This document shows positions 6,161 through 62,044 of a stretch of DNA of 64,000 nt, in pieces. The notes beneath the pieces are model-generated. The model saw nothing but the letters and a program-made list of their open reading frames with translations, did no database searches and was not told where the DNA came from. How positions within the stretch are numbered: position 1 is the stretch's first letter; each line of letters starts with the position of its first letter. Source of the DNA: Mytilus trossulus (lineage: Eukaryota); contig NC_086380.1 of the NCBI RefSeq assembly GCF_036588685.1, positions 4,836,001 through 4,900,000 on the forward strand. Reading direction: 5' to 3'. A program made the position numbers and the translations under genes.

Positions 6161-8177
6161 TTATTCGGTAATGAGGTATCCAGAAAATGTCGACCTATGA
6201 TCTCCATAAATTCTTTCCGAAGCATCGGCATGTTTCACATAAACTGTGTCATTTAATTTCAATGCCATCACAACATTCAGAGTCCCTGTTGATAAATCAT
6301 TACCGAAAGCCAGGACTACTTTCTCATTATTTTTCCACAGATAGCAGTGTAAATCGCTATTATGATAAGCCATAACCGTTGTTGAAATAGAGTAGAGTCC
6401 CGTTTTCGGCGCAGTAAAAACTCCAGTGTCCTGACTGTAGACTCCACCCATGTTTAACCATATTTTGTCAAATACTACAACTTCATTACTAGCAAGACTC
6501 TTTGTTGGCGTAAGCGATGCTGTAAAGGCTGGCCTTTCCCTTTTTCGTCCAGGTTCTGAAAAATAATTTTCAATCTATTTTGTATACAGCTGTACAATAA
6601 CCCAATACAGTCTATATTTTTTCTATTAAAAATTATACTTATCGAAAGTGAGAATAAGCCTTCACTTGAAATAAGTAACATGTAGACGAAACGCGCGTCT
6701 GGCGTACTAAATTATAATCCTGGCACTTTTGATAACTATTTAAACCACTGGGTCAATGCCACTGCTGGTGGACGTTTCGTCCCAGAGGGTTTCACAAGCC
6801 CAGTAGTAACCACTTCGGTGTTGACCTGCATATCAATCATGTAGCCATTTTTATAAATATCTTGTTTACAAAACTTTGAATTTTTCGACAAACTAAGGAT
6901 TTTCTTGTTCCAGGCATAAATTACCTTAGCCGTATTTGGCACAACTTTTGGGAATTTTGGATTCTCAATGCTCTTCAACTTTTTACGTGTTTGGCTTTAT
7001 AAATATTACGATTTGAGCGTCACTGGATTATGAAGACGAAACGCGCGTCTGGCGTACTAAATTATAATCCTGGTACGTTTGATAACTATATATTTGCTTG
7101 CATTTCCTATCATGATTTTCTTGATAGAGGGTTACTGCTTACAAGGAAGCTATTAAACCAAGAGTTCCAAATGGTGAAGTTGAAATCATCCCTTCGTAAA
7201 TTTTACGGATCGACGCCATCACGAGTTGGTTGACCGTTATGGAATAACCGTTGCACAAATGATATCGGATATGTTCCTTACGTCGTAACTACAATCCCCT
7301 TCCCTTTCATGAATTTGACCTACCGAATTAGACTATTTACCGGATTTGTAATCACATAAGCAACACGACGGGTGCCGCATGTGGAGCAGGATCTGCTTAC
7401 CCTTCCGGAGCACCTGACATCACCCCAGTTTTAGGTGGGGTTCGTGTTGTTTATTCTTTAGTTTTCTATGTTGTGTCATGTGAACTATTGTTTTTCTGTT
7501 TGTCTTTTTTCATTTCTAGCCATGGCGTTGTCAGTTTGTTTTAGATTTATGAGTTTGACTGTCCCTTCGGTATCTTTCGTCCCTCTTTTTGTACACGCTG
7601 CATATCAGTTATATAAACATAAATACATATGGTCAGGTCTTCATATAAATGAGACAAAATTAAGAAGCATAACATTATAGGTATAACAATATCTTTTACT
7701 AAAACGATTTACACATTATAATTATAATCTTGGTACTTATGATAACTTACTACATACACTCAGAATTCGAAGTGGCGGATCCAGAAGGGCGGGTGGTTCC
7801 GGGGGATAAAAAAAACCCTTTTTGGTAACGATCAATGCATTTGAATAGGGACATATGGTTTGACCCCCCCCCTTTTCGTAGTATTTTTTTTTGTCATAAA
7901 AGCTACAGAAATACATCATATACATACCGTATCCTATGTCTTCAAGAACAGCCTGTTTTATCCGAGGAATCATCTCGTTCATGGTATCTTCTACTGTCTT
8001 CTTAATAGCTATCTTCAACACCTGGTTAAGTTTCGTGGTATCGAACAGAGCAACTAAAGGCATATTTAGATTGTCCAGTAGTGGTATCTCAGTAGAAGAG
8101 TTGTCACTATTTTGTCCTTTCGCGTATTTCATAATCGTAATTACTAAAAATTGAAGCAAAATCCCTCTTAGTACCAT
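6161..8177 (-). CDS. C1q domain-containing secreted protein, g1 (214 aa; exon 1 8177-7928, exon 2 6555-6161)
   Basis: Exon 1 reads MVLRGILLQFLVITIMKYAKG (signal peptide) plus a helical stalk and ends G|GTATGT. Exon 2 follows ttttcAG. The phase-1 join is in frame: IGY-E-PGRKRERPAFTASL...VFDKIWLNMGGVYSQDTGVFTAPKTGLYSIS...LKLNDTVYV...STFSGYLITE*. All gC1q hallmark motifs are present (AF.A, F..V..N.G..Y...TG.FTAP..GLY, L...D.V.V, STFSGYL). Confidence 0.93.
6684..7090. repeat. Dispersed ~370-bp repeat in g1 intron
   Basis: GTAGACGAAACGCGCGTCTGGCGTACTAAATTATAATCCTGG... occurs at the homologous intron site in g3 (19067-19416) and g6 (41214-41566). Related copies at ~29100-29320, ~52250-52420, 56158-57035 and 62587-62795. 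Confidence 0.8.
7091..7590 (+). mobile_element. Penelope-like retroelement 3' fragment
   Basis: ACISYHDFLDRGLLLTRKLLNQEFQMVKLKSSLRKFYG is homologous to the post-RT part of the element at 50650-51120 (ACSHYTDFIYRSVLLTQKLLQQ...LRKFYG). Absent from g3 and g6 introns. Confidence 0.7.
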
Positions 8178-8272
8178 AGTTACAAGTTCAAGAATTGTTT
8201 TCTTCTCTCCGACTGTGTACTTAAAAATTAACCTGCAAGAACTTATATGTTTCGGAAATTACGAATGCAAAG

Positions 8273-8395
8273 TATTTATATGCATTGATCACGTGGCTTA
8301 TGATAACAAAAACATAAAAAAAAAAACAAAAAAAAAAAACTGTTAAAGAGTAAGAGTGTTTGTTTGCAAATTAAAGACCGGCAAATGGTGTAAGT
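8273..8395 (-). promoter_or_regulatory. Putative core promoter of g1 (TATA box, E-box, conserved upstream block)
   Basis: Minus-strand TATAAATA at 8280-8273 is ~100 nt upstream of the ATG, with CACGTG just upstream and a conserved GCCGGTCTTTAATTTGCAAACAAA block. Same TATA at 14825, 20122, 34158, 37665, 42256, 50169/50255 and 60521. Confidence 0.65.
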
Positions 8396-11300: not shown

Positions 11301-13246
11301 ACCTTCTCTCACTCTCAGTGACTGCTGTGGAAAGTAAACTTAGAATTGATAGTACAAAAAATAAAACACAATAAGTACATTGCTCATACACTTGTATCTG
11401 GAATTGGCTATTTTTAAAGTTGAATAACTATTCAGATTATTACATGTTGCATGTGCAGTTATATGTCTTGAATAAGTTTTGAAAATAATACTATCCAGCT
11501 GTACCAGGGCTGCCAAAAATACTTCAGACTCACGCATGCTAATTTTTTTTGCGGCAGTATCCTTTGATCTATTTTTTTTCCTCTTTGATATTTTCAATTT
11601 TTGCCAAATCTCATGCATTTGCTTAATTAAAAGTTGTCATAACTGCTATGCATGTGTCGATGAAAACTATGGCAATCGTATCCCTCAGAGCATTCTGCTC
11701 TTTGATTACGATTTTCATGTTAAGAAAAAAAAAATCTGTTCAAATAAAACTTGAGAAAGCTTTGTTTCTAGCATGCTATAATATATATAACCGGTTTAAA
11801 TGTTGAAATATATAAGTTTAATGAGTCCCAAAGAACTGCTTTTGTTATTTTCATTAAAAACATATTTTACTGAAATGTTGTTTAAATACATGGTACCAGA
11901 CTTTTATTCATTTTTTGTTCATAGATTAGGCTGTAAGTTTTCTCGTTTCAATTGTTTTTATATTGTCATTTCGGGGCCTCTCATAACTAACTATGCGGTA
12001 TGAGATTTGCTCATTGTTGAAGTCCGTACGGTGACGTATATATGTTTTTGTAGTTGTTAATTTCTGTGTCATTTTGGTCTCTTGGATAGTTTTCTCATTG
12101 GCAATCCTACAAAATCTTCCTTTTTATTACCAAAATGTTGAACTATGAATTGCAATTTTTCATTTGAAATACAAAGCATACATATAGTTGCGTTATTGTC
12201 ATGTACAAATGTATATGTATTCAGTAATGTACATCTAAGTGTCCCTGTAGGGTTTTAAAGACACATCATATATAATAGTATTTAATGAATAACCAATCAC
12301 ACCCATTGACAAAGTGTTCAATAATTATTTTGTTTATAAGGAATGTAAGAAAACTGAGACAAATGTAAAATTAATATTCTACTTTGAAAGGGCGAACGGC
12401 AATGGTAGCATAGTCATACGCACATCTTCAATTGTAATTTGTAATTAACACAGAAATCAAATGAAACTAATTCTATGTGCACCAGGATATGCAGAAAAAG
12501 TGACGATATAGTATATTGGACAAATATCGAGAACAATACTGCTGAAATTCAGTGATGGTTCAATGGCACTTCTCATTATCTATCAATCAGCCATTACACG
12601 TGATCAGCGACAGATGCACATGCATGTACGTGCATTTTGTTTACATGAAATCGAACCTAAGATAATCAGTAAGGTATTTATAGAACAGAACTATATATAG
12701 CTGATTTGACGATGTTTCTCGTCATTATAAATTGAAATTGAAGCTGCTAGACAGTTATACAAATTCAGATGATTAATTCATCACAAACTATAATCATTGA
12801 AATCGATTTATGAAATAGAAGAATTAAAGAAGGCATTAAATATATTTTGGCTGTGTCACCAAATCAACGTAAATGAGTGAATTCGTAACAAATATGTTGT
12901 ACGTGCTTTGAATTTATCTAGGAATACCATTCTCACATTAATTATTTGTTTATGTTAACTTTGATTGCGACATCGTTATTAGCTATCATTAACTGTAGAA
13001 ATAAACAAAGATATAAAAAAAAAAAATTTGTTAGAAATCTTTTATTTATTACTCAATAGATATAATAAAATTATATGTCGTTCCCTAAAAAATGCATATA
13101 TATTTTGTTTTGAAATAATATAAATAGGTACTAGCATTTGGAAATTTTCAGTGAACATGAGTATGACATTTTATATACATAACGTGTGTTTTGCCGAATT
13201 CATTTCTTTTTTTCCAGATCAAATTCTTCTAAAGGTTTTTACTGGT

Positions 13247-14751
13247 TTATTCGGTAATTAGGTATCCAGAAAATGTCGACCTATGATTTCCATAAATCTG
13301 TTCCCTACCACCAGCATGTTTGACATAAACTGTGTCACTCTTCTTTAATGCAACCACAACATTCAGAGTCCCAGTCGATAATTTAGTACCGAAAGCTCTG
13401 ACCAGTTTCTGATTATTCTTCCACAAATCGCAGTGTAACATGGTGGTATAATAAGACATAACCGTTGTTGAAATAGAGTAGAGTCCCGTTTTCGGCGCAG
13501 TAAAAACGCCTGTGTCCTGATTGTAAGCGGCACCCATATTTAACCATACTTTGTCAAATATCACAACTTCACTACTAGCAAGATTCTTAGATGATGTAAG
13601 CGATGCTGTAAAAGCTGGCCTTTCCTGTTCTTTTCCAGGTTCTGAAAATTAATTTTCAATGTAATATTCAATTTTCATAACACATGAAAAATAACCCGAA
13701 TACTGTCTGTATTGTCTTTATATTTATTGAAAGGGAAAATGATTTTCGAAACCAATACTTGTAACATATATTTGTATTGTCAGCATATTAGTAATTTAAA
13801 CACCATACAAATGACGTGGTGTGAACACCAATGAGACAACTTTCCGCCAGAGACCATATTATAAAGAATTATATTTAAGAAGCATAATATAATATAAATA
13901 TAATTCCATACAGTTGAACGTAGAGAATTAGAGTGAAATTATTTTCTCTTGTCTTTTCATGATGTATAGGTGTACTTATCGTGTGCTCAGTTTCCCGCCG
14001 AAACCGGGGTTTCGGTAATTCAACACGACAACGCCAAAGGAGCGGTTCTCCTCTTTAAATAACTTTGAAAATTTTAATTTATTCAATAAGTCTCCCTTTT
14101 TAGTTATTTATAAGCCGGACAATAAGATTGATAGGACTGGAGGTATATTTTTTTTGGTATTATGTTGTGTGAAGCATAATATATACAAATGTGATTTTGA
14201 AGGTAACATATTTAATAAACATAGCAGTGGCGTTGTCGTGTAGCTTTGCCCTTTAATTATGAGTTTTGTATTCTTCATAGTATGTTATTTTCTTTAAGTG
14301 TTTTTCAAAGGCATACTTTGTGAAGTTCAATATAGAATGAAGGTTGTTACAAGAGAACAATATCTTTTACTAAAGCGGTTCACACTTACATTCAGAACTC
14401 GAAATACATTTTCATGGTAGTTGATATTTTCTGTCACAAAAGTATATAAACTTATATATACATACCGTTTCCAATGTCAGCAATAACAGCCTGTTTTATC
14501 CGAGGAATCATCTGGTTCATGATATCTTCTACTTCCTTCTGAATCATCTGGTTCATGGTATCTTCTACTTCCTTCTGAATAGCGATCTTCAACACCTGGT
14601 TAAGTTTCGTGGTATCAAACAAAGCAACTAAAGGCATATTTTGAGTGTCCAGTAGTGGTATCACAGTTGAAGAGTTGTCACTATTTTGTCCTTTCGCGTA
14701 TTTCATAATCGTAATTACAAAAAGTAGAAACAAAATCCCTCTTAGTACCAT
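13247..14751 (-). CDS. C1q domain-containing secreted protein, g2 (226 aa; exon 1 14751-14466, exon 2 13641-13247)
   Basis: Same two-exon, phase-1 GT-AG structure. Exon 1 is 286 nt because of a 36-nt tandem duplication (IQKEVEDTMNQM/IQKEVEDIMNQM). Exon 2 is 395 nt with an intact gC1q domain. Confidence 0.93.
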
Positions 14752-20319: not shown

Positions 20320-21378
20320 ATTGTCGAGCCTGCAACTTTTGTTGCAGAAAGCTCGACATAGGGATAGTGATCCGGTGGCGGCGGCGGCGTTATCTAACTT
20401 CTTAAAAGCTTTATATTTTAGAAGGTAGAAGACCTGGATGCTTCATACTTTGTATATAGATGCCTCATGTTACGAACTTTCCGTCGGTCAAATGTACAAT
20501 GTCCTTGATCTCATTTTTATGGTTCAGTAACTACTTGGAAAAAAAGTTACGATTTTTTGTAATGTGAAATTCTCTCTTTAATATTATAAGTAATTGGATA
20601 ACTATATTTGTTGTTTGTCCTCATGCCCGTCAGACAGTTTTCACTTGACCTCATTTCATGGATCAGTGAACAAGGTGAAGTTTTGGTGGTCAAGTCAATA
20701 TCTCAGATACTATTAGCAATAGGTCTAGTATATTCGGTGTATGGAAGGACTGTAAGGTGTACATGTCTAACTGGCAAGTGTCATCTGACCTTGACCTCAT
20801 TTTCATGGTTCAGTGGTTATAGTTAAGTTTTTGTGTTTTGGTCTGTTTTTCTTATACTGTCTGCAATAGGTCTACTATATTTGGTGTATGGAATGATTGT
20901 AAGGTGTACATGTCTAGCTGACAGGTGTCATCTGACCTTGACTTCATTTTCATGGTTCAGTGGTCAAAGTTAAGTTTTTGAGATTTGGTCTATTTTTTTA
21001 ATACTTTATGCATTAGGTCAACTATATTTGGTGTATGAAAATGTTTTATGATCTATATGTCTGTTTAGCAAGTTTTATTTGACCTTGACCTTATTTTCAC
21101 GGTCCATTGCTAAGTGTTTGTGTTTTGGTCTGTTATTCTTAATTTATAAGCAATAAGTGAACTATATTTGTTGTATTGCAGAATTGTTAGCTGTACATGT
21201 CAACCTGGCATGGTTCATCTGACCTTGACCTCATTTTCATGGTTTATTGATCAATGTTGCGTTTTCTTGGTTAATGTTTAGTTTATGTGACAGTTGTAAT
21301 AAAGCTTTATATTTAGGTCTATCTACATAATATCAATGATTAGTAAAGAAGGCGAGACATTTCAGTGTGTACACTCTT
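20320..21378 (+). mobile_element. Non-autonomous Helentron/HINE-like element
   Basis: 5' hairpin TGTCGAGC...GCTCGACA, (GGC)n microsatellite, internal tandem repeats containing TGACCTTGACCTCATTTTCATGGTTCA, and insertion into a T-rich site that is empty in paralogs. Confidence 0.75.
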
Positions 21379-31848: not shown

Positions 31849-34064
31849 TTACTCGGAAATGAGGTATCCAGAAAATGTCGACCTTTGATCTCCATAAATG
31901 TATTCCGAATCACTGTATAAATGTTTGACATAAACTGTGTCATTCATCTTCAATGCCATCACAACATTCAGAGTTCCAGTCGATAAATCATTACCGAAAG
32001 CCCTGACCAGTTTCTCATTATTCTTCCACAAATCGCAGTGTAAATAGCTGTTATAGTTAGACATCACCGTTGTTGAAATAGAGTAGAGTCCCATTTTAGG
32101 AGCAGTAAAAAGTCCAGTCTCGTGATCGTAAGCTCTACCCATGTTTAACCATACTTTGTCAAATATTACAACTCCGTTACCACCGAAATTTTGGGTGGAT
32201 GTAAGTGATGCTGTAAAAGCTGGCCTTTCCTTAACTCGTCCAGGTTCTGAAAAATAATTTTCAATGCCTTTTGCATACAGCTTGAAAAATAACCAAATAC
32301 AGTCTATATTGTCTATATGAAATTATACTAATTGAAAGTAAAAATGGGCCTTCACTTAAGTTACATATATTTGTGCCCTCTGCATTTAGTTTTATAAACA
32401 TAAATACATGTGGTAAGGTCATCATATTAATGAGACAACTCTCCGCCAGAGACCATATGATAGAGAAGTTAAATTAAGAAGCATAACATAACAACATCTC
32501 TTACTAAAGCGATTTACACATACATTTAGAGGTTGGAATCATTTTTTTTTGGTGGTCACTTCATTTCAATAGGGACATATGGTAGGAATCCCCCGTTCGC
32601 CTTGGTTGGGACCCTCCTTTTTTAATGGCTGGTTCCGCCTCTGACTCGAAAACATTGTCATGGCCGCATAATATTTTTTTAGTCATAAAAGCGTAGGACT
32701 CAAATCTATGGTGGGTTCCAAATCTATGGCAGATTTCTAATCTATGGTAAATGTGACGTCATGCCATCCCACATCTATGGCAAGTTTTGTACTTTCCTAA
32801 TCTATGGCGGATTTATGTTGTTTCCAAATCTATTGCAAATTTTGTGCAAATGGAAAACAATGCAGTTCATTTTCGACCTATAACTTGTCTTGAGCAAGTC
32901 GAAAAATACGACAACTGGAGCATGTCTACAAACATTTGTGGAATAAACATTCCATAATGTTAAAATGATGTGTTCTGTAAAAAATAAACATTTTTCATGA
33001 AACCTGTGCATGGTACCTTTTTTTAGCCAATTCATTAAACCAACTAATAAGACCTCTAACAAACAAGAAGGCCGCTTTTTATAAAAAAAAAATATAAAAA
33101 AGTAACAAATAAAAATAGACAGTTTGAATTTTCAAATAATATTTATTTCAGCGATATCGTTAATACATCTTTTTTTTATTTGATGACGATTTAAATCAAA
33201 TTTGTATCCCGTAATTTTATCTATTATTTTATAAACTTTGCCAGCCGTAGACAGTAAACTACTACTAACTAGATATAGGAAGATGTGGAATGAGTGCCAA
33301 TGAGACAACTCTCCATCCAAGTTACTATTTATAAAAGTAAACCAGTATAGGTCCAGGTACGGCCTTCAACAAGGAGCCTTGGCTCACACCAAACAGCAAG
33401 CTATAAAAATCCTTTTTTCTAAAATATGCGGTACTGAAAATAGAGGCGCCATAATTCATCGCGGGATTCGGCCAGTACAGCACATTTGGTCCATCTTTAG
33501 AATAGTAGGTCACATCTTCCTTTAAACCACCCAAAAAATGTTGTCATGGAAATATCTTCATCTTGAATGGTGTTCAAATTTATGGGTTCCGCCATCGTTA
33601 GCGGCATCGAAGATCTAATATGGCGTTATATTCAATTGTGACGTTATACGGTACCCTTTCCCCGAGATCTGCCATAGATTTGGAGTAAACAAAAATCTGC
33701 CATAGATTTGAGTTGTTTGGCGTTTGTAACGTCACATTTGCCATAGATTAGGAATCTGCCATAAATTTGGAACCCGCCATAGATATGAGTCCTATATATA
33801 TACTTCATACATACCGTATCCAATGTCGACAATAACAGCCTGTTTTATCCGAGGAATCATCTCGTTCATGGTATCTTCTACTGTCTTCTTAATAGCGGCC
33901 CCCAACACCTCGTTAAGTTTTGTGGTATCGAACAGTGCAACTAAAGGCATATTTTGATTGTCCAGTAGTGGTATCTCAGTAGAAGAGTTGTCACTATTTT
34001 GTCCTTTCGCGTATTTCATAATCGTAATTACTAAAAGTTGAAACAAAATCCTTCTTAGTACCAT
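31849..34064 (-). CDS. C1q domain-containing secreted protein, g4 (215 aa; exon 1 34064-33815, exon 2 32246-31849)
   Basis: Canonical splice sites. Exon 2 is 398 nt (one extra codon in KHLYSDSEY) and reads EPGRVKERPAFTASLTSTQNFGGNGVVIFDKVWLNMG...STFSGYLISE*. Confidence 0.93.
32696..33792. mobile_element. MITE with ~65-bp TIRs and TA TSD in g4 intron
   Basis: TA|GGACTCAAATCTATGGTGGGTTCCAAATCTATGGCAGATT... and ...AATCTGCCATAAATTTGGAACCCGCCATAGATATGAGTCC|TA. Absent from paralogous introns. Carries a nested short repeat at ~33270-33408. Confidence 0.85.
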
Positions 34065-34496: not shown

Positions 34497-35487
34497 TTTG
34501 TCGAGCCTGCGACGCAGAAAGCTCGACATAGGTTTAGTGATCCGGCGGCGGCGGCGTTAGCTAACTTCTTAAAAGCTTTATAGTTTAGAAGGTGAAAGAC
34601 CTGGATGCTTCATACTACTTGAAAAAAAAAACAAGATGTTTTGTATTGTTAAATTCTCTCTTATAATAAGTAATAGGATAACTATATTTGGTATGCACGT
34701 ACCTTGCAAAGCCTCATGCCCGTCAGACAGTTTTCACTTGACCACGACCTCATTTCATGGATCAGTGAACAAGGTTAAGTTTTGGTGGTCAAGTCCATAT
34801 CTGAGATACCATAAGCAATAGGTCTAGTATATTCGGTGTATGGAAGCACTGTAAAGTGGTCAACTGTCCAACTGGCAGGTGTCATCTGACCTTGACCTCA
34901 TTTTCATGGTTCAGTGGTTATAGTTAAGTTTTTTTGTGTTTTGGTCTGTTTTTCTTATACTGGATGCAATAGGTATTCTATATTTGGTGTATGGAATGAT
35001 TGTAAGGTGTACATGGCTAACGGGCAGGTGTCATCTGACCTTGACCTCATTTTCATGGTTCAGTGGTCAAAGTTAAGATTTTGAGTTTTGGTCTTTTTTT
35101 CTAAAACTATATGCAACAGGTCAATTATAATTGGTGTATGGACATATTTTATGATCTATATGTCAGTCGTGCAAGTTTTATTTGTCTTTGACCTCATTTT
35201 CACAGTTCATTACTCAGTGTTAAGTTTTTGTGTTTTGGTCTCTTTTTCTTAAACTATAAGCAATATGTCAACTAAATTTGTTGTATGGAAGAATTGTTAG
35301 CTGTAAATGCCTGCCTGGTATGGTTCATCTGACCTTGACCTCCTTTTCATGGTTCAAAGGTCAATGTTTAGTTTTCTTTGTTTATGTTAAGTTCATGTGA
35401 CAGTTGTAATAAAGCTGATATTTAGGACTACCAATATAATATCAATGAATAGTAAAGAAGGCGAGACATTTCAGTGTGTGCACTCAT
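34497..35487 (+). mobile_element. Non-autonomous Helentron/HINE-like element (same family as 20320-21378)
   Basis: Same termini (TGTCGAGCC...; ...GAAGGCGAGACATTTCAGTGTGTGCACTC), (GGC)n and internal tandem repeats. Confidence 0.75.
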
Positions 35488-40685: not shown

Positions 40686-42160
40686 TTATTCGGTAATAAG
40701 GTATCCAGAAAATGTCGACCTTTGATCTCCATAAATTCTTTCCGAACCAGTGTGATGTTTTACATAAACTGTGTCATTTAATTTCAATGCCATCACAACA
40801 TTTAGAGTCCCTGTTGATAAATCATTACCGAAAGCCAGGACTACTTTCTCATTATTTTTCCACAGATTGCAGTGCAAGTAGCTGTTATGATAAGCCATAA
40901 CCGTTGTTGAAATAGAGTAAAGTCCCGTTTTCGGCGCAGTAAAAACTCCAGTGTCCTGACTGTAGACTTCACCCATGTTTAACCATATTTTGTCAAATAC
41001 TACAACTTCATTAATAGCAAGACTCTTAGTTAGCGTAAGCGATGCTGTAAAGGCTGGCCTTTCCCTTTTTCGTCCAGGTTCTAAAAAATAATTGTCAATC
41101 TATTTTATATACAGCTGTACAATTATAACCCAATACAGTCTATATTTTTTCTATTAAAAATTATACTTAATTATCGAAAGTGAGAATAAGCCTTCACTTG
41201 AAATAAGTAACATGTAGACGAAACGCGCGGCAGGCGTACTAAATTATAATCCTGGTACTTTTGATAACTATTTAAACCACTGGGTCGATGCCACTGCTGG
41301 TGGACGTTTCGTCCCCGAGGGTTTCACTAGCCCAGTAGTAACCACTTCGGTGTTGACCTGAATATCAATCATGTGGTCTCTTTTATAGATGTCCTGTTTA
41401 CAAAATTTTGAATTTTTCGACAAACTAAGGATTTTCTTATTCCAGACATAGATTATACCTTAGCCGTATTTGGCACAACTTTTTGGAATTTTGGATCCTC
41501 AATGCTCTTCAACTTTGTACGTGTTTGGCCTTATAAAAATTACAATTTGAGCGTAACTGATGAGTCTAATGTACTCTCTGCATATCAGTAATATAAACAT
41601 TAATACATGTGGTCAGGTATTCATATAAATGAGACAAAATTAAGAAGCATAACATTATATAACAATATCTTTTACTAAAACGATTTACACACACACTCAG
41701 AATTCGTAGTGGCGGATCCAGAAGGGCGGGGTGGTTCCGGGGGATAAAAACCCCTTTTTGGGGACGATCAATGCATTTGAATAGGGACATATGGTTTGAC
41801 CCCCCTTTTCTCCTGTGTTTTGACCTCCTTTTTAAAATGGTTGGATCCGTCCCCGACTCGAAATATATTGCCATGGCCGTAGTAACATTTCTGTCATAAA
41901 AGCTACATACCGTATCCAATGTCTTCAATAACAGCCTGTTTTATCCGAGGAATCATCTCGTTTATGGCATCTTCTACTGACTTCTTAATAGCTACCTTCA
42001 ACACCTGGTTAAGTTTCGTGGTATCGAACAGAGCAACTAAAGGCATATTTAGATTGTCCAGTAGTGGTATCTCAGTAGAAGAGTTGTCACTATTTTGTCC
42101 TTTCGCGTATTTCATAATCGTAATTACTAAAAATTGAAGCAAAATCCCTCTTAGTACCAT
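40686..42160 (-). CDS. C1q domain-containing secreted protein, g6 (214 aa; exon 1 42160-41911, exon 2 41080-40686)
   Basis: Closest paralog of g1. Donor G|GTATGT, acceptor tttttAG, open frame through STFSGYLITE*. Confidence 0.93.
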
Positions 42161-45316: not shown

Positions 45317-48300
45317 TATTGAGGTTTATTGTTGTTGTATAATTTTAAATCATATGCATCATTTAAATTATATGTTTACCTATAACACCCCTTCAGTCGA
45401 AATGGAGTCTTCCATATTATCGTTTCGAGTTGTCTCCCTTCTGGAAGTATTTTCCGTCAACGAAATACACTACGACTCGTCTAGAAAAATAACTTGTTAG
45501 ATGTCGATAAACGTCTTATTATATTAAGAACGATCTCAATTTAAACAAAGGAGTGTGTACGGAAAGGAGTCATGCCCACGGACCCAAAAAAATAATATTT
45601 AAAGCGTTAGAAATGGGGTTCCTCCTATAATTAATGATGAAATACCTTCCTCACTCTCATTGACTGCTGTGGAAAGTAAACTTAGAATTGATAGTACAAA
45701 AAATAAAACACAATAAGTACATTGCTCATACACTTGTATCTGGGATTGGCTATTTTTAAAGTTGAGTAACTATTCAGATTATTACATTTTGCATGTGCAG
45801 TTGAATGTCTTGAATAAGTTTTGAAAATAATACTATCCAGCTGTACCAGGGCTGCCAAAAATGCGTCAGACTCACGCATGCTCATGCTTTTTTTGAGGCA
45901 GTATCCTTTGATCTATTTTTTTCCTCTTTGATATTTTCAATTTTGGCCAAAATTCATGCATTTGCTAAATGAAAAGTTGTCATAACTGCTATACATGTGT
46001 CAATGAAAACTATGGCAATCGTATCCTTCAGACAGTCTGATCTTTGATTACGATTTTCAAGTTAAGAAAAAAAAATCTGTTCAAATAAAACTTGAGAAAG
46101 CTTTGTTTCTAGCATGCTATAATATATATAACTGGTTTAAATGTTGAAATATATAAGTTTAATGAGTCCCAAAGAACTGCTTTTGTTATTTCCATTAAAA
46201 AAAACATATTTTACTGAAATGTTGTTTGAATACGTGGTACCAGACTTTTATTCATTATTTTGTTCATAGATTAGGCTGTAAGTTATCTCGTTTGAATTGT
46301 TTTATATTGTCAATTCGGGGCCTTTTATAACTAACTATGCGGTATGATATTTGCTCCTTGTTGAAGTCCGTACGGTGACGTATATATTTTTTTGTAGTTG
46401 TTAATTTCTGTGTCATTTTGGTCTCTTGTAAATAATTGTCTCATTGGCAATCATACCAAATCTTTTTTATATTTTATATTTCCTTTTTATTACCAAAATG
46501 TTTGAACTATGAGTTGCAATCTTTCATTTGAAATACAAAGCATACATATAGTTGAGTTATTGTCATGTACAAATGTATATGTATTCAGTAATGTACAGCT
46601 AAGTGTCCCTGTGGGGATTTAAAGACACACCATATATCATAGTATTTAATGAATAACCAATCACACTCATTGACAAAGTGTTCAATAATTATATGGTTTA
46701 TAAAGAATGTAAAAAACTGAGACAAATGTAAAATTAATATTGTACTTTTAAAGGGCGAACGGCAATGGTAGCATAGTCATACGCACATCTTCAATTGTAA
46801 TTTGTAATAAACACAGAAATCAAATGAAACTAATTCTATGTGCACAAGGATATGCAGAAAAAGTGACGATATAGTATATTGGACAAATATCGAGAACAAT
46901 ACTGCTGAAATTCAGTGATGGTTCAATGGCACTTCTCATTATCTATCAATCAGCCATTACACGTGATCAGCGACAGATGCACATGCATGTACGTGCATTT
47001 TGTTTACATGAAATCGAACCTAAGATAATCAGTAAGGTATTTATAGAACAGAACTATATATAGCTGATTTGACGATGTTTCTCGTCATTATAAATTGAAA
47101 TTGAAGCTGCCACACAGTTATACAAATTCAGATGATTAATTCATCACAAACTATAATCATTGAAATCGATTTATGAAATAGAAGAATTAAAGAAGGCATT
47201 AAATATATTTTGGCTGTGTCACCAAATCAACGTAAATGAGTGAATTCGTAACAAATATGTTGTACGTGCTTTGAATTTATCTAGGAATACCATTCTCACA
47301 TTAATTATTTGTTTATGTTAACTTTGATTGCGACATCGTTATTAGCTATCATTAACTGTAGAAATAAACAAAGATATAAAAAAAAAAACTTTGTTAGAAA
47401 TCTTTTATTTATTACTCAATAGATATAATAAAATTATATGTCGTTCCCTAAAAAATGCATATATATTTTGTTTTGAAACAATATAAATAGGTACTAGCAT
47501 TTGGAAATTTTCAGTGAACATGAGTATGACATTTTCTATACATAACGTGTGTTTTGCCGAATTCATTTCTTTTTTTCCAGATCAAATTCTTCTAAAGGTT
47601 TTTACTGGTTTATTCGGTAATTAGGTATCCAGAAAATGTCGACCTATGATTTCCATAAATCTGTTCCCTACCACCAGCATGTTTGACATAAACTGTGTCA
47701 CTCTTCTTTAATGCAACCACAACATTCAGAGTCCCAGTCGATAATTTAGTACCGAAAGCTCTGACCAGTTTCTGATTATTCTTCCACAAATCGCAGTGTA
47801 ACATGGTGGTATAATAAGACATAACCGTTGTTGAAATAGAGTAGAGTCCCGTTTTCGGCGCAGTAAAAACGCCTGTGTCCTGATTGTAAGCGGCACCCAT
47901 ATTTAACCATACTTTGTCAAATATCACAACTTCACTACTAGCAAGATTCTTAGATGATGTAAGCGATGCTGTAAAAGCTGGCCTTTCCTGTTCTTTTCCA
48001 GGTTCTGAAAACTAATTTTCAATGTAATATTCAATTTTTATAACACATGAAAAATAACCCGAATACTGTCTATATTGTCTTTATATTTATTGAAAGGGAA
48101 AATGATTTTCGAAACCAATACTTGTTACATATATTTGTATTGTCTCAGCATATTAGTAATTTAAACACCATACAAATGACGTGGTGCGAACACCAATGAG
48201 ACAACTCTCCGCCAGAGACCATATTATAAAGAATTATATTTAAGAAGCATAATATAATATAAATATAATTTCATACAGTTGAACGTAGAGAATTAGAGTG

Positions 48301-48741
48301 AAATTATTTTCTCTTGACTTTTCATGATGTATAGGTGTACCTATCGTGTGGTCAGTTTCCCGCCGAAACCGGGGTTTCGGTCATTCAGCACGACAACGTC
48401 AAAGGAGCGGTTTTCCTCATTTAATAACTTTGAACATTTTAATTTATTCAATAAGTCTCCCTTTTTAGTTATTTATAAGCCGGACAATAAGATTGATAGG
48501 ACTGGATGTTGTTTTTTTGTATTATGTTGTGTGAAGTATAATATATACAAATGTGATTTTGAATGTTCATAGGTAACATACTTAATAAACATAGCAGCGG
48601 CGTTGTCGTGTAGCTTTGCACTTTATTATGAGTTTTGTATTCTTCATACTTTTATGGTATGCTATTTTCTTTAAGTGTTTTTCAAAGGCGTAACTTATTA
48701 AAGTTCAATACAGAATGAAGGTTGTTACAAGAGAACAATAT

Positions 48742-49080
48742 ACAATTATGGCCTGTTGAAAATGTAAATATCCAAAATTGTCAACACGAGAAGGTTATTT
48801 CAGTGAGGGCGCAGCCCGAAGTGAAATAACTTTTAAGGGTTGACAATTTTGGATATTTATCGATTCTAAAGGGCCACAATTGTTTTAATTTACCGAACTT
48901 ACAGTGGAAGGGCCTTTTGTACACTTACTGTAAATATTATATTTTTACATAAACAAACACAAGCTGACGTTTGAAAAAAAAAGTTGTGTTTTAGAATTTC
49001 TCGAATGTACAACAAAGGTAGAATCATTTTGTAAAATATTGATGGCCCTGTGAGAGATATCATCTGCTGCTGGCACTCTA
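48742..49080. mobile_element. Insertion with ~140-bp terminal palindrome in g7 intron (Crypton-like non-autonomous?)
   Basis: TATCCAAAATTGTCAAC..GTTATTTCA..TGAAATAAC..GTTGACAATTTTGGATA hairpin at 48742-48883. Absent from the g2 intron. Family assignment is tentative. Confidence 0.55.
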
Positions 49081-49140
49081 TACACTTACATTCAGTACTC
49101 GAAAACATTTTCATGGCAGTTATTATTTTCTGTCACAAAA

Positions 49141-49830
49141 TAAAATTGAGAATGGAAATGGGGAATGTGTCAAAGAGACAACAACCCGACCAAATAAAAA
49201 ACAACAGCAGAAGGTCACCAACAGGTCTTCAATGTAGCGAGAAATTCCCGCACCCGGAGGCGTCCTTCAGCTGGCCCCTAAACAAATATATACTAGTTCA
49301 GTGATAATGAACGCCATTCTAATTTCCAAATTGTACACAAGAAACTAATATAAAAATAATACAAGACTAACAAAGGCCAGAGGCTCCTGACTTGGGACAG
49401 GCGCAAAAATGCGGCGGGGTTAAACATGTTTGTGAGATCTCAACCCTCCCCCTATACCTCTAACCAATGTAGAAAAATAAACGCATAACAATACGCACAT
49501 TAAAATTCAGTTCAAGAGAAGTCCGAGTCTGATGTCAGAAGATGTAACCAAAGAAAATAAACAAAATGACAATAATACATAAATAACAACAGACTACTAG
49601 CAGTTAACTGACATGCCAGCTCCAGACTTCAATTAAACTGACTGAAAGATTATGATTTCATCATATGAACATCAGGCACAATCCTTCCCGTTAGGGGTTT
49701 AGTATCATACCATCATAAAATATATGAGAAGAACATAACCCGTGTCATGCCAACAACTGTTTTTAGAATAAATGTCTTTAGTTCCGACGCAAAGACCTTA
49801 TCAGTGACTCAATATTAACGCCAAACTATG
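49141..49830. repeat. Dispersed repeat inserted in g7 intron
   Basis: Homologous to 27310-27735 and 51133-51290. Absent from the g2 intron and ends ~25 nt from the donor site. Confidence 0.8.
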
Positions 49831-50644
49831 CACTGTATATGAACTTTTTCATACCGTTTCCAATGTCAGCAATAACAGCCTGTTTTATCCGAGGAATCAT
49901 CTGGTTCATGATATCTTTTACTTCCTTCTGAATAGCGATCGTCAACACCTGGTTAAGTTTCGTGGTATTAAACAAAGCAACTAAAGGTATATTTTGAAGA
50001 ATTGTCACTATTTTGTCCTTTCGCGTATTTCATAATCGTAATTAAAAAATGTAGAAACAAAATCCCTCTTAGTACCATTATTACAAGTTTAACAATTGTT
50101 TTCTTCACTCCGACTGTGTATTTAAAAACCTGCAAGAACTCATATGTTTCGAAAATTACTAATGCAAATATTTATATGCATTGCTTAACAATTGTTTTCT
50201 TTACTCAACTTTTTTAGTAAGGAACCTGACAAAATTCCGGCAACAAATGAGAATTATTTATATGCATCGCTCACGTGGTTTATTAAAAAAAACCACAACA
50301 AATAAAAAAAAAACTGTCAAGAGTCTAAGATTTTTTGTTTGCAAATTAAAGACCGGCAAATGGTCGCTGTCTTTCGTTTTGTTTTTTTATTTTGCCATGT
50401 GATTATGGACTTTCCAAATTGAGTTTCCTCTCAGTTCAGTATTTTTGTGATTTTACTTTTTTCAAAGTTTTTTTCTTATCAGATATCACAGGGAACTGTT
50501 TAAATTGGATAAATATTTTGTTAAAAGATTTAAATTAACGTTAACACAGTTTGAAGTAAAATCGCCCACCCTGGTTGGAGCTCCTGTGGTCGCTTTAAAA
50601 TATATCACAGGTCACATGTTAAAAGGTAACAGATCGTCAGTTTG

Positions 50645-53965: not shown

Positions 53966-55441
53966 ATTTCCAATTATACCACATCTTTTTTTATATTTAT
54001 TGAAATGTCAGATAGCATACATGGCATCCTAGCTTAAAAGTTAACATGACCACAATATCATCAGTACTATTTTGTTTTAGAATAATAAACACAATTACAT
54101 TAGGAATCGTTCAGTTAGAAGTCTTGTATATAGTGTATTCGAACTATGCCTACTCAATTACACTAGCAATCAAAGTACTGAAGTACTGACCGCAAGTTCT
54201 TGTGGATGGTCACAAGCACAAGTGTCTCAGAAAATGAATCACATCTTTAAACTTGAAAGTAAGTACATAGATATATATCTTTTCTGAGATCGTGTGTGGA
54301 TGATGAATAAATGGCAGGAAATTCAACATCACCGTAATACCAGTGTCTCAGAAAATAAATCACATCTCTATACCTAAAAGTAAGGTTAAGGAACATAGAT
54401 ATATATTTTTTTCTGAGATCGTGTGTTGATGATGATTACATGACAAGGAATTCAACCTCGCCGTAATAACTATTATATTGTAGGGATATAATCATTTGTG
54501 ATCAGTATATTTTGGTTTGTTATTATATATTATACTAGGACACACCCGTGATATCGCTGGTCCGTGACTAAATTAGAGTATATAACTATGCGTATTATCT
54601 GATAAAGTCATGCGGATTATAAGATGCACAGTTTTCTCTGCTTCCAAAATCTTTTTGTTTGAACCCTTCTACCTAGAACTTATCAGTTATTGGTAATGTT
54701 AATTTCCAATTATACCACATCTTTTTTTATATTTATTGAAATGTCAGATAGCATACATGGCATCCTAGCTTAAAAGTTAACATGACTACAATATCATCAG
54801 TACTATTTTGTTTTAGAATAATAAACACAATTACATTAGGAATCGTTCAGTTAGAAGTCTTGTATATAGTGTATTCGAACTATGCCTACTCAATTACACT
54901 AGCAATCAAAGTACTGAAGTACTGACCGCAAGTTCTTGTGGATGGTCACAAGCACAAGTGTCTCAGAAAATGAATCACATCTTTAAACTTGAAAGTAAGT
55001 ACATAGATATATATCTTTTCTGAGATCGTGTGTGGATGATGAATAAATGGCAGGAAATTCAACATCACCGTAATACCAGTGTCTCAGAAAATAAATCACA
55101 TCTCTATACCTAAAAGTAAGGTTAAGGAACATAGATATATATTTTTTTCTGAGATCGTGTGTTGATGATGATTACATGACAAGGAATTCAACCTCGCCGT
55201 AATAACTATTATATTGTAGGGATATAATCATTTGTGATCAGTATATTTTGGTTTGTTATTATATATTATACTAGGACACACCCGTGATATCGCTGGTCCG
55301 TGACTAAATTAGAGTATATAACTATGCGTATTATCTGATAAAGTCATGCGGATTATAAGATGCACAGTTTTCTCTGCTTCCAAAATCTTTTTGTTTGAAC
55401 CCTTCTACCTAGAACTTATCAGTTATTGGTAATGTTAATTT
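53966..55441. repeat. 736-bp tandem duplication (2 copies, no differences seen)
   Basis: TTCCAATTATACCACATC at ~53968 and ~54704; CTAGGACACACCCGTG at 54535 and 55271 (period 736). Confidence 0.92.
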
Positions 55442-55615: not shown

Positions 55616-55664
55616 TCTATTTCAATGTGCAATAAAGATATGCAGAACGAGTTTGACAATATCA

Positions 55665-56148
55665 TTATACCCCCGATTTAAAAAAAAAGGGGGGTATACT
55701 GCTTTATCTCTGTCTGTCCTTCCGTCAGTTCGTCAGTCAGTCCGTCCGTCCGTCCGTCCCATGAATATATTTTGTCGCATTTTTCTCAGGAACTACAATT
55801 CAACGATTTCTGAAATTTGGTTTCAGGGTTTATCTAAGTCAGACATACCGTGTGATGCGTTTTCAGATTGATCACTTGAAAACTTCCTGTTTACCGAACA
55901 CTTGTATGATTTTACACATGATAGCCAAGTTGAAAATTTTCGTCACATTTTTCTCAGGAACTACAATACAAGAATTTCTGAAATTTGGTTTCAGGATTTA
56001 TATAAGTCAGCTATACCGTGTGATGCGTTTTCAGATTCATCACTCTACAACTTCCTGTTTACCGAACACTTTGATATTTTTACACTATTTATATTATCCA
56101 CTTGCGGCGGGGGTATCATCAGTGAGCAGTAGCTCGCAGTTTCACTTG
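55665..56148 (+). mobile_element. Helentron-associated HINE (DINE-1-like)
   Basis: SubTIRs ATACCCCCG (55667) / CGGGGGTAT (~56108), (GTCC)n microsatellite, two ~168-bp core repeats, 3' stem-loop GTGAGCAGTAGCTCGC. Confidence 0.85.
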
Positions 56149-56157
56149 CTGAATATA

Positions 56158-57035
56158 AATAAACTCATCATAGATACCAGGACTAAATTTAGTATATACG
56201 CAAGACGCGTTTCGTCTACAAAAGACTCATAAGTGAATCTCGAATCCAAAAAAGTTAAAAAGGCCAAATAAAGTACGAAGTTGAAGAGTATTGAGAACCA
56301 AAATTCCTAATGTGTTGCCAAATACAGCTAAGGTAATCAATGCCTGAGGTAGAAAAGCCTTAGTATTTCAAAAAATGCCAAAATTTGTAAACAGTAAATT
56401 TATAAATATAACCGTATCAATGACATTTCATGTCAGCACAAAAAATGCTGACTACTGGACTTGTGATACCCTCGGGGGGGGGGGGGGGGAATAAATCTCC
56501 ACCAGCAGTGGCATCGACCTAGTGGTTGTAAATAAACTCATCATAGATACCAGGACTAAATTTAGTATATACGCCAGACGCGTTTCGTCTACAAAAAAAT
56601 TATCAGTGACGCTCAGTCCAAAAAAGTTAAAAAGGCCAAATAAAGTACGAAGTTGAAGAGCATTGAAAACCAAAATTCCTAAAAGTGTTGCCAAATACAG
56701 CTAAGGTAATCTATGCCTGGATAGAGAAGCCTTAGTATTTCAAAAAAATCAAAAATGTGTAAACAGTAAATTTATAAATATAACCATATCAATGACAATT
56801 CATGTCAGCACAAAAAGTGCTGACTACTGGGCTTGTGATACCCTTGGGGAAATAAATCTCCACCAGCAGTGGCATTGACCCAGTGGTTGTAAATAAACTC
56901 ATCATAGATACCAGGACTAAATTTAGTATATACGCCAGACGCGTTTCGTCTACAAACGACTTATCAATGACGCTCGATCCAAAAAAGTTAAAAAGGCCAA
57001 ATAAAGTACGAAGTTGAAGAGCATTGAGAACCAAA
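56158..57035. repeat. Tandem array (~2.4 copies, 361-373 bp) of the dispersed ~370-bp repeat, inverted orientation
   Basis: AAACTCATCATAGATACCAGGACTAAATTTAG starts at 56161, 56534 and 56895. Confidence 0.88.
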
Positions 57036-57177
57036 ATGTAATATAGTGGACAAATATTGAGAACAAAACTTTAAGATTCAGTGATGATTCAATGGCTCTT
57101 CTCTTTATCTACCAATCAGCCATTTACACGTGATCAGCAACAAATGCACATGCATGTTTACATGAAAACAAGCCTTA

Positions 57178-58030: not shown

Positions 58031-58554
58031 TAAGATAATCAGTCAGGTATTTATAGAGTAGAACAATATGTAGCTAATTTGACAGTGTTTCTCATCATTA
58101 TAAATAAAAATTTAAGCTCCGAGCAGACTACTTAACTAATGCAGACGATTACTAGTAATTAATCGCAAACTATAATAACAGCAATCGATTAATAAAATAG
58201 AAAAATTAAAGGCATAAATCACAAAACAATATAAATAACACATGAATGAGTGAACTTGTAACACATATGTTGCACTTTGTATGTAGCTAGGAATACGATG
58301 CTCACTCTAATTATTTGTTTATGTTAACTTTGATTGCGACGTCATAATTTGTTTAATGGGTACGCCAAAACACTTCCATAGCCACTATCAAGAATTGCCG
58401 ACATAAATGAAGACATAAAAAAATCAGAATTAAATTTCAGGAAAATGCTTTATTTATTACTAGATGAATATATTAAATTTTCTCAGTCTCCTACTAAACA
58501 CCTCCAAAACATTTCTCATTTCCAGATCAATTTCTTCTAAAAGATTTTACAGGT

Positions 58555-59467
58555 TTACTCGGTAATTAGATATCCGGAAAATGTCGATCTATGATCTCCA
58601 TAAATGTATTCCTTAGCATTAATATGTTTGACATAAACTGTGTCATTCTTCTTTAATGCCACCACAACATTCAGAGTCCCAGTCGATAATTTAGTACCGA
58701 AAGCTCTGACCAGTTTCTCATTATTCTTCCACAAATCGCAGTGTAAATGACTGCTGAGATAAGACATAACCGTTGTTGAAATAGAGTAGAGTCCCGCTTT
58801 CAGCGCAGTAAAAACTCCAGTTTTCTTATCGTAAGCTCCACCCATATTTAGCCATATTTTGTCAAATATAACAACTTCGTATCGACCAAGATTTCTGTGT
58901 GATGTAAGTGATGCTGTAAAAGCTGGTCTTTCTTTTTCTCGTCCTGGTTCTGTAAAAAATAATTTCCAATGTAGTTTGCTTAACACATGGAAAATAACCC
59001 AATACAAACTTTAATGCTAAATGAAATTATGTTAACTGAGAGGGAAAACATACCCTTTGATAGAGAAATCAAATAAAGCAGCATTAAAACAATATCTCTT
59101 ATTTAAAAAACAAATTTTGACGCATACGTTCAGAATTCAAAATACATTGTCATGCGAATTTTCTTTGATCGATTTTTTAAAAAAGCTACTGAAATACATG
59201 AACTTTATACATACCGTATCCAATGTCAGCAAGAACAGCCTGTTTTATCCGAGGAATCATCTCGTTCATGGTATCTTCTACTGTCTTCTTTATAGCGGCC
59301 CTCAATACCTCGTTAAGTTTCGTGGTATCGAACATAGCAACTAAAGGCATATTTAGATTGTCCAGTAGTGGTATCTCAGTAGAGGAGTTGTTAGGTTTTT
59401 GTCCTTTCCCGTATTTGATAATAATTGTTACGACAAAAATTAATAATACAATCGCTTTAAGTGTCAT
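58555..59467 (-). CDS. C1q domain-containing secreted protein, g8 (215 aa; exon 1 59467-59215, exon 2 58949-58555)
   Basis: Divergent signal peptide MTLKAIVLLIFVVTIIIKYGKG, 265-nt GT-AG intron, intact gC1q exon. Confidence 0.92.
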
Positions 59468-61672
59468 TGTTACAACTTTAACCGAAATTTTCTTTACTCC
59501 AACTGTTTAGTTAACAACAATACAGATTGGATATGTTTCGGAAATAAAATACATGAGAAGTAACATATATGTGTATATAATATATATATAATATAGCACG
59601 CCATTTATAAATTAACATATTTAATTCACGAAAAGCGCAGCTTTTTGTGACTAAATATGTAAGTGAGTAAGGTATGGCTATATATGATTTGTACCATTAA
59701 TTGTCTTTGATTCAGGTCAAAAGTTTAATGGCTGTATGCTGACCATAATAACTTAACTGTACTTTTTGGTATGTCAATCCATAGTGGCGTGATACTAAAC
59801 ATGCTAAATTTGATTTTCAGAACATGAACAAATTCAGCAGATGATAATTGAATATGTAGTTTAGATACAGGAACATTTAAATTGATTCAGATATTCAAAT
59901 TTGTTAGCTATTTATGTATTATTGAATAGTTTTTATCTCCCCGACAATTCTCTATAAACAGGGATGTGGGTATGTTAGGTGGATGTAACATTTTTTATGA
60001 TGTTTTTATGCCTTCAAAACAGAAAAGGGCGAGTAGTTTCAAATAGTTTTTAACGTTGTGATAAGACGAAAACTATTTCCCAAGTCCCAACAACTGTACA
60101 GATATCGATTTATTGAATTAAATGTTCGTTTATTACGAGAAAGGTATAGGAAACAAATATTTGAAGTTCGATCAATTTACGGAGATAGACCTTTATGAAA
60201 TGGAGAAAATTATTAAACATCCAGTGACATATATTTTTGTTTTAGAATATTATTGATTTCGAAAAGATAAAATCAGGAATCCAACAACATTACTGTTGGA
60301 AAATATATATAGTTAGATCTATTACATTTTGTTTCATTATTTGTTTCATTATTTGTTTCTCGAAGGAGGCGGTGCCAGACTGTGCATTAACAACTCTATT
60401 ATGGAAGATCCAGCACTGTTTTAAGGTCCTCCTATTCTATTCTCTGCAATTCAAACGAGATGCGGTCAAAGGCGGGAATGGCTTGTGAAATAAAAAAAAT
60501 ATTACCATCCATATTACAAGTATTTATATGCATCACTCACCTTGTTGTCCCCCCTCCCCAAGCAAAAAAAAACAACCCCAAAACCTCACTGAGGATTTGT
60601 TTTTCCTTTCTTGCAAATTAAAGACCGACACATAATGTAAAGTTCGTAGTCTTTGAACAGCTTTTTATTGGATACCAAAGGGAACTGATCTGATTGGACC
60701 AATGCCAACGTATATGGTAGACATACATTTGTTTTTTGACATTATCACTTCAATCACAAGATATGTATACAAAACAAAATAAGTATATAATTTCTGTGCT
60801 ATCAGCATGTTTTTGGAATTGTATCCTTAACTTATCAACTGTAAAATAAAATATCTTAGCTGTTATTGCGCTTGCTCACAATGTTAATAACAATCATTTT
60901 AAAAACATATACATTTGAATGCAATAAGTTTTATATTACCATCATTCGTATATTAAGATATCAGATATCGTCACATTTTAAACATGACATCATCGATTGG
61001 AAATAAACGCTAATACCTTTTAACATTTCAAAATAAAAACTGAGAATAGAAACGAGGAACGTTTTAAAAAGACATCAAAGAGCCGAAAACAGTACAAGTA
61101 TCCATTTCAGATTAAGAAGTAAAGTTGACAAAGTTAAGGAGCCACAAAGAAATGCTTTTTTTTTTGGTACGTTCAAAGAAAAATATTGAATATTATATTA
61201 CAGAAATATTCTCTTTTAGTATGGTAACTGCTAAAGGAAATCATATGATAGGAAATTTAGGCTCTGATTATCAAAAATCAAAATGGTGGTACACACATCA
61301 AACTCGGGTCCCGCTGAAATGCTGCTCCAAAAGCAATTGAAAGCTCACAATGAAAACAAAGTCATGTCTTTATCTTTTCTTTTTTTTTTTAATCTTCTTA
61401 TTAGAGTTAATTTACCAATTGCAGAACTAAACGTCCTGATCGTATATTTTATAGAGAAACAGTGAGAAAGATATAAGTGAATCTGATTAAACCTAAAACG
61501 ATTTTTGTTCTGATACACGTCTTTTGCGACCTAAAATCGTTATGGGTATTTTCTCATATTTTTTTTTATATCATTCTCCAATGCTAGTAATGAGTTTTAA
61601 CCAAGTCCTAGTATTAATCCATATTTTGCTTAAGCTTGTCATATTCCATAATTCACTTTAGTTTCATTAGTT

Positions 61673-62044
61673 TTACTGTTCATTGATTAGATATGCAGAA
61701 AACATACTATAGTTCCTTCCTAATATCTTTTCCCCATCTTTTTTGTCGTGTTTTATGTAGATAAATTCCCCTTTTTTCACTGTGTAGTATTCCCGGAAAA
61801 GAATTATTCCCATATAGTATAAATGTGACTTGATTGAGAGGTGACAGTGTATGTATGGACATAACAGTACTTGATAGGAAGTACAATCCGTTTCTTGGAA
61901 CCGTAAACACCCCTGTAGTAGGGTTATAAGCATTGCCCACATTTAGCCATACTTGGTCAAATTTTATAATTTCATTAGAATGTGGTGTATTTTACGTTTT
62001 CATTGATGCTGTAAATGCGGGTCTTTCATGTATTCGTCCAGGTT
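61673..62044 (-). pseudogene. Divergent C1q-domain exon, pseudogenised (g9)
   Basis: Acceptor AG at 62046-62045, then EPGRIHERPAFTASMKT*NTPHSNEIIKFDQVWLNVGNAYNPTTGVFTVPRNGLYFLSSTVMS. In-frame TAA at 61994-61992. After a frameshift near 61850 it reads ...HCHL...VKKGEFIYIKH...YSMFSAYLINEQ*. No matching exon 1 seen inside the window. Confidence 0.85.

Follow-up and report, generated by a model that had tools for sequence, protein, structure and literature searches.

The stretch of Mytilus trossulus DNA analysed here (64,000 nucleotides (nt) of contig NC_086380.1, positions 4,836,001 to 4,900,000; hereafter the window) carries a tandem cluster of genes for C1q domain-containing (C1qDC) proteins, and our main finding is that the C1q-type heads which these genes encode have a mosaic make-up that arose through gene conversion or unequal crossover. 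This is the best-supported process in the array and was overlooked by the original prediction, which had concentrated on four hypervariable patches resembling the complementarity-determining regions (CDRs) of antibodies. With a probability of roughly 55%, we read the cluster as one in which exchange creates mosaic heads, strands and the predicted trimer interface are kept by purifying selection, the predicted tip loops are freer to change, and diversifying selection likely acts on a few residues of the C-D and G-H loops that tune binding.

A six-frame motif search found nine C1q-type head exons in the 64-kb window, all on the minus strand, of which eight (g1-g8) have an upstream coding exon; for g9, a lone exon with a stop, deletions and a frameshift, no exon 1 was found within the window. 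Seven genes (g1-g6 and g8) are intact, each with two exons, a phase-1 GT-AG intron and a protein of 213-226 amino acids (aa), and the g1+g2 block is present again as g6+g7 at a divergence of 4-16%. The genes are as follows:

6161..8177, minus strand: g1, intact C1qDC gene, 214 aa (gene model, splice joint, Pfam C1q match); protein identical to P0001
8177-7928 and 6555-6161, minus strand: exons 1 and 2 of the g1 gene model, separated by a phase-1 intron of 1372 nt
13247..14751, minus strand: g2, intact, 226 aa, coiled-coil exon lengthened by a 36-nt tandem duplication; by inspection the same protein as P0010
18546..20034, minus strand: g3, intact, 214 aa, chimeric head
31849..34064, minus strand: g4, intact, 215 aa, G-H loop longer by one inserted residue
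36662..37569, minus strand: g5, intact, 213 aa, 266-nt intron
40686..42160, minus strand: g6, intact, 214 aa, belonging with g7 to the duplicate of the g1+g2 block
47610..50078, minus strand: g7, frameshifted through the loss of 26 nt in exon 1; its head exon matches that of g2 exactly
58555..59467, minus strand: g8, intact, 215 aa, head partly g2-like
61676..62044, minus strand: g9, degenerate head exon belonging to an older sister clade (64% to P0022 against about 50% for g1-g8)

Exchange between paralogous heads

Seven distinct heads were compared, g7 being left out because its exon 2 is identical to that of g2 (0 of 393 nt differ). Neighbouring informative sites in the heads are more compatible with one another than expected (pairwise homoplasy index, p=0.0006 and 0.003), and one breakpoint near codons 45-70 gains 41.2 log-likelihood units, compared with a maximum of 24.0 in 200 single-tree simulations. 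Exon 1 is also mosaic, with an uncalibrated breakpoint gain of about 40. Individual pairs give the same picture: g1 and g3 differ at 8 of 183 nt in codons 1-61 as against 34 of 207 afterwards, g3 being a chimera whose intron and codons 1-61 resemble g1/g6 and whose 3' half is of another type, and g2 and g8 differ at 3 of 123 nt in codons 68-108 versus 53 of 267 elsewhere. A further tract links g2 with g7:

12465..13964 and 46828-48330, no strand assigned: g2/g7 conversion tract with the entire head exon inside; 14 of 1500 nt substituted, compared with 66 of the 1478 nt adjoining (p=1e-9)

Beyond the window, P0014 from another Mytilus species joins a g3-like 3' half to a different 5' half, and loop types recur in new combinations. 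Among 17 proteins (our set of 22 minus P0018, P0021 and three sister-clade proteins), distances in one segment are nearly uncorrelated with those in another (Spearman -0.10 to 0.19, except 0.58 for A-A'/B'-B), a weak correlation that is also expected from saturation of short variable segments. Synonymous divergence tends to be higher in the patches, by a factor of 1.6-1.8 (p=0.06-0.13). A literature search, with most subscription papers outside its reach, turned up no account of gene conversion in the C1qDC arrays of bivalves.

An assembly that joined two haplotypes of a very heterozygous mussel in tandem could in principle have created some of the array and some of its mosaic signal. The repetition of g1+g2 as g6+g7 and the perfect 740-bp tandem repeat at 53966-55441 are what such a fault would leave behind; we nonetheless think it highly improbable, given that the tracts are near-identical rather than identical and involve several pairs, that g6-type loops occur in contigs of runs X1 and X5, and that proteins of other Mytilus species such as P0014 combine the loop types anew.

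The g1 splice joint (6555-7928) was recovered in contigs of three of the four runs, aligned at 85% likeness, while run X5 was without it; contig depth cannot rank expression. The letters of the g6 C-D and G-H loops recur in contigs of both X1 and X5, which points to germline, shared variants. Somatic, CDR-like diversification was considered and set aside, with no evidence for it in these assembled contigs, where g6-type loops recur across samples.

One homologue deserves separate mention. P0012 of M. californianus ('isoform X3') carries the N-terminal exon of the sister clade (P0026-like) in front of a head of the g1-g8 type, and represents either an exon exchange between clades or a join made in the gene model.

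Where the heads vary

The original prediction described a nearly invariant scaffold interrupted by four strongly variable patches. All seven scaffold motifs are indeed present in all eight head exons of g1-g8, yet "nearly invariant" goes too far, as 11 columns outside the patches have three or four states. The patch strings that were quoted agree with the sequences, with patch 1 of g3 and patch 2 of g6 having been left out. Variation does concentrate in the patches, where 23 of 26 columns vary as against 32 of 105 elsewhere (55 of 131 head columns in all; Fisher p=7e-8, for patches picked post hoc), and seven of the nine amino-acid differences between g1 and g6 fall there, as had been proposed. 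Patch 3, on the other hand, is weak, with two columns and three states, and the state common to g2 and g8 sits inside a conversion tract. A fifth variable patch, at head columns 37-42 within the B'-B loop, had been overlooked, and linker columns 4-5 are equally variable. The same columns vary in ten homologues not labelled trossulus. In g1 the patches lie as follows:

6485..6508, minus strand: patch 1, residues 100-107, in the A-A' loop; variable, with a dN/dS of about 1
6428..6445, minus strand: fifth patch, B'-B loop, residues 121-126; probably outside the apex
6341..6370, minus strand: patch 2, residues 146-151 and 155, in the C-D loop and the beginning of strand D; residue 151 a candidate selected site
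6296..6301, minus strand: patch 3, residues 169-170, in the E-F turn; three states and a dN/dS below 1, with residue 169 part of the predicted interface
6206..6229, minus strand: patch 4, G-H loop, residues 193-200; most variable, with indels among homologues; residues 193, 194, 196 and 198 candidate selected sites

The assignment of patches 1 to 4 to the A-A', C-D, E-F and G-H loops holds, both by the secondary structure of the models and by alignment to C1q, adiponectin and cerebellins. These four loops are predicted to make up the apex of the globular C1q (gC1q) head; a literature search for an explicit statement of this set found none. Apex loops defined from AlphaFold models cover 32 of 131 columns and hold 49 of the 98 extra residue states (circular-shift p=0.008).

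It had further been expected that the variable residues would cluster on one face of the trimer. Only one patch residue (169) is among the 39 predicted interface residues, and the clustering itself is read from contacts rather than coordinates. On the side of the coiled coil, the contact list groups the starts of strands A and C and the ends of F and H (residues 93, 137, 181, 212), and on the opposite side it brings together the ends of A, C and E and the start of H (residues 97, 145, 164-167, 203-206). This fits an arrangement in which all four patch loops leave from the end of the modelled head that is far from the coiled coil. The B'-B patch would lie on the flank near the base, away from the apex.

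Two observations concern residues next to the patches. In the 22 proteins, His153 and Cys154 (g1 numbering) are invariant and His192 nearly so, and they adjoin the most variable residues, 151 and 193; they are possibly the constant core of a putative binding site. Residues 155 and 165 of g1 (6341-6343 and 6311-6313) vary together among P0001-P0018, Asp155 occurring with Arg165 in 9 of 10 cases and non-Asp with non-Arg in 8 of 8, which reflects either a compensating pair or simple linkage within conversion tracts.

Diversifying selection or relaxed constraint

Whether the patches are under positive selection, as the original prediction held for all four, was addressed with custom Python codon models (F3x4, naive empirical Bayes) rather than PAML, on seven window sequences; in breakpoint models, branch lengths were scaled per segment. 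Standard site tests pass, with likelihood-ratio test (LRT) statistics of 16.35 (M1a/M2a), 17.83 (M7/M8) and 16.23 (M8a/M8) and about 9% of sites at a ratio of nonsynonymous to synonymous substitution rates (dN/dS) of about 3.9. With one or two breakpoints the LRT remains at 12.9-14.3, and columns 67, 109, 111, 113 and 115 remain (residues 151, 193, 194, 196 and 198), that is, codons of the C-D and G-H loops. By structural class, dN/dS is 0.22-0.24 in strands, 0.46-0.51 in other loops and 1.2-1.3 in pooled apex loops (not different from 1). The structure-defined C-D loop reaches 2.1-2.5 (p about 0.03, uncorrected, one of four tests), whereas the A-A' loop (0.8-1.1) and the E-F loop (0.75-0.86) stay near or below 1. 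The claim thus narrows to the C-D and G-H codons, and the idea of four equally hypervariable patches is rejected. The patches as originally drawn give 1.64-1.78 against the gene-wide dS, but they had been chosen for being variable.

Several results weigh against selection for diversity even in this narrower form. The LRT falls to 5.3-7.0 (p=0.03-0.07) with three to five breakpoints (p=0.06-0.07 with four or five) and to a non-significant 1.4-3.3 when the model admits double and triple changes, and a neutral model with such multi-hit changes fits slightly better than M2a. The signal is gone without G-H codons 109-115 (p=0.22). The nominal 5% cut was exceeded in 3 of 45, 8 of 45 (one at 16.3) and 21 of 60 neutral simulations. 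Measured against their own dS, the patches have a dN/dS of only 1.09-1.13, the proportion of nonsynonymous differences (pN, 0.344) being close to that of synonymous ones (pS, 0.329), and the apex loops hold no more than half of the variation. Exon 1, outside the head, also passes (LRT 11.8), with one codon, residue 79, left after partitioning. On a wider level, gene conversion and multi-nucleotide changes inflate selection scans on such clusters.

The patch ratio against local dS and the loss of significance under multi-hit changes speak for a rival explanation in which constraint is only relaxed, with exposed loops drifting about neutrally, short conversion tracts from unsampled paralogues and small indels clustering the changes, and neither selection for diversity nor a special binding role for the loops. 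Structure-defined apex loops have a dN/dS of about 1.0 with local dS, the non-apex B'-B loop and residue 79 are equally variable, and the 3' flank of g1/g6 is 13-18% diverged, which puts the G-H differences near the local neutral level. Many patch changes are first-base toggles among Tyr, His, Asn and Asp codons, and C1q domains in general vary mostly in their loops (bioRxiv 10.1101/776690). Against this explanation stand the observed LRT (about 16.4), which was matched in none of 150 neutral simulations with mosaic trees or multi-hit changes (0/45, 0/45 and 0/60), the elevated ratio in the C-D loop as a class defined by structure, and a patch pN (0.34) above the scaffold pS (0.23). In addition, g2 and g7 are the only pair with identical heads and g7 is dead, a single case (n=1) that fits selection against identical heads among live copies. 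Relaxed constraint alone is an explanation that we take seriously and yet, on balance, doubt. The patch loops are at least free of constraint, and for a few residues of the C-D and G-H loops the balance tips somewhat in favour of diversifying selection.

Outside the head, the codon for residue 79 of g1 (7939-7941, and its equivalents in g2-g8) has six residues in seven genes and lies just before the intron, at the end of the coiled coil and far from the apex. Positive selection in the signal peptide was also considered as a candidate, and vanishes after partitioning.

Protein architecture and predicted trimer

The four heads scanned (g1, g2, g5 and g8) all match Pfam C1q (PF00386) at 75.7-81.6 bits, compared with a cut-off of 23.7. 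AlphaFold predicts a ten-strand jelly-roll head (predicted local distance difference test score (pLDDT) 85-96), for which Foldseek returns matches at E of about 4e-12, the closest being C1QL3, caprin-2 and cerebellins (24-30% identity, TM-score to target 0.74-0.86). A hydrophobic, signal-like N-terminal helix (residues 2-19, judged from sequence and predicted structure rather than by a signal-peptide predictor) suggests that the array proteins are secreted. In the AlphaFold models, helices at 47-65 and 71-80 precede the head, with heptad-spaced contacts between chains at residues 54-81, and Gly-X-Y (collagen) repeats are absent. The predicted architecture corresponds to the secreted coiled-coil type II C1qDC proteins (sC1q-like type II, PMC6835236), that definition using COILS where we use AlphaFold helices and contacts.

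Three copies of residues 21-214 gave a trimer score of 0.93 against 0.00 for the best control, a value that may reflect memory of solved C1q trimers. Among solved pairs, 21 of 30 attained the mark for this score, and among single chains 0 of 23 did (17 of 29 and 0 of 30 for eukaryotes). At least 92% of contacts are shared between runs (pLDDT 82-83), and the model predicts a homotrimer with an N-terminal three-helix coiled coil. Ten of the 39 residues in the predicted head interface vary, mainly by conservative changes.

Adiponectin-type C1q heads have a calcium site at the apex. The E-F loop of g1 (residues 166-173) is about four residues shorter than in adiponectin or cerebellin and lacks their acidic residues, so an apex calcium site is likely absent and binding would be expected to be independent of calcium.

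Comparison with known systems

Bivalves have hundreds of C1qDC genes, whose ligand-recognising residues are described as virtually unknown (PMC6835236), and tandem type II genes predominate in Mercenaria (PMC8905726). Our array closely resembles the type II clusters of Crassostrea virginica (Gerdol et al. 2019, PMC6835236), which are likewise tandem, with two coding exons and the order signal peptide (in our genes a putative one), coiled coil and gC1q head. There, too, recent copies are near-identical, the head is mostly under purifying selection and few sites have dN/dS above 1, more of them in the gap-rich C-terminal part; each oyster cluster has 4-11 positively selected sites, denser in the C-terminal half (PMC6835236). 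The oyster study uses neither the term "gene conversion" nor "loop", makes no correction for recombination in the methods passage covered, and calls the structural placement of selected sites beyond reach (PMC6835236). For the Mytilus array, by comparison, we place the sites in loops, demonstrate mosaicism and find a less robust selection signal. The array clearly illustrates a mode of diversification already known from shellfish immune gene families rather than a new mechanism, and our modest additions are the mosaic heads, the loop assignment and five candidate residues.

Conversion that shuffles haplotypes and leaves peaks of divergence is a general process, known from opsins, the major histocompatibility complex (MHC) and plant resistance (R) genes (Fawcett and Innan 2011, PMC3924837). 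Like these families, the array has tracts that link neighbours or involve a pseudogene, segments in new combinations and the trend to higher synonymous divergence in patches (PMC3924837). The Mytilus paralogues are about 20% diverged in their flanks, so that exchange appears patchy and falls short of strong homogenisation. Among other immune receptors, selection has been tested in Toll-like receptors (PMC8678459), and the diversification of fibrinogen-related proteins (FREPs) is covered in PMC5877582.

Antibody CDRs, like the patches, are variable loops rich in Tyr, Ser and Asn that sit on a conserved beta-sandwich. The resemblance is no more than an analogy, since here variation lies between germline paralogues, and neither segment libraries nor recombination signals were seen in the window. 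The fold is that of vertebrate gC1q trimers (C1QL1-3, cerebellins, caprin-2, adiponectin and C1q), in which exposed loops are variable and can adjust ligand preference (10.1101/776690); the mussel proteins differ from them in their low identity, the missing collagen and the shortened E-F loop.

A model for the array and its function

Under the reading that we favour, unequal crossover would multiply and lose copies, and conversion would move half-domains and shorter tracts: the 5' part (A-A', B'-B), the middle (D-G) and loop segments. Purifying selection would preserve fold and trimer interface, while loop changes would build up and be recombined, some of them likely favoured through altered binding. 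In the jelly-roll topology, strand D begins beside the end of strand G. Residues 151, 193, 194, 196 and 198 may therefore come together as one sub-site per chain, a putative specificity site. Its ligands might be microbial or particle surfaces, by analogy with other bivalve C1qDC proteins, from which the presumed immune role is borrowed. A stronger version, which we put forward tentatively and think unlikely as a whole, would see a germline combinatorial repertoire, in which conversion, also from the dead g7, deals loop modules among trimeric heads, selection retains combinations, and the specificity site of bivalve C1qDC proteins is formed by residues 151 and 193-198, where the C-D and G-H loops meet.

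The loops could also have diversified in proteins that are not microbe sensors but secreted components of matrix or mucus, or metal-binding components, in shell, byssus or extrapallial fluid. C1qDC proteins do occur in mussel shell and extrapallial fluid, the patches are rich in His, Tyr, Asn and Ser, and several homologues are automatically named 'heavy metal-binding protein HIP-like'. Such names are similarity labels, which vary among near-identical paralogues. Fast turnover, pseudogenes and mosaic heads, moreover, resemble immune gene clusters (PMC3924837), and characterised bivalve C1qDC proteins bind microbial patterns (PMC5877582). We thus find a structural or metal-binding role improbable.

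Whatever the ligand, the array provides natural loop-swap variants on one scaffold (nine differences between g1 and g6, common half-domains in g1/g3 and g2/g8) together with five candidate residues, which makes the question of ligand recognition directly testable.

Other features of the window and homologues

All named protein matches above 50% identity are from Mytilus, and one that is identical to the g1 head is labelled M. trossulus at its source; for P0008, no window gene matched above 80%. The in-frame 36-nt tandem duplication of g2, at 14505-14580, makes its coiled coil 12 residues longer and is absent from g7. The 740-bp tandem duplication (99.9% identity) is either very recent or an assembly artefact. 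Among nine other open reading frames of the window that were scanned, one has a Pfam match, a C-terminal fragment of a hAT transposase (2779-3117, minus strand; PF05699, E=3e-5). High-copy repeats with very deep contig cover lie within the g1 intron, and satellite-like arrays of 147, 168 and 361 bp lie between genes (together at 6680-7590, 20707-21244, 34739-35383 and 55769-57037). Intron lengths (265-1850 nt) probably differ largely through repeat insertions.

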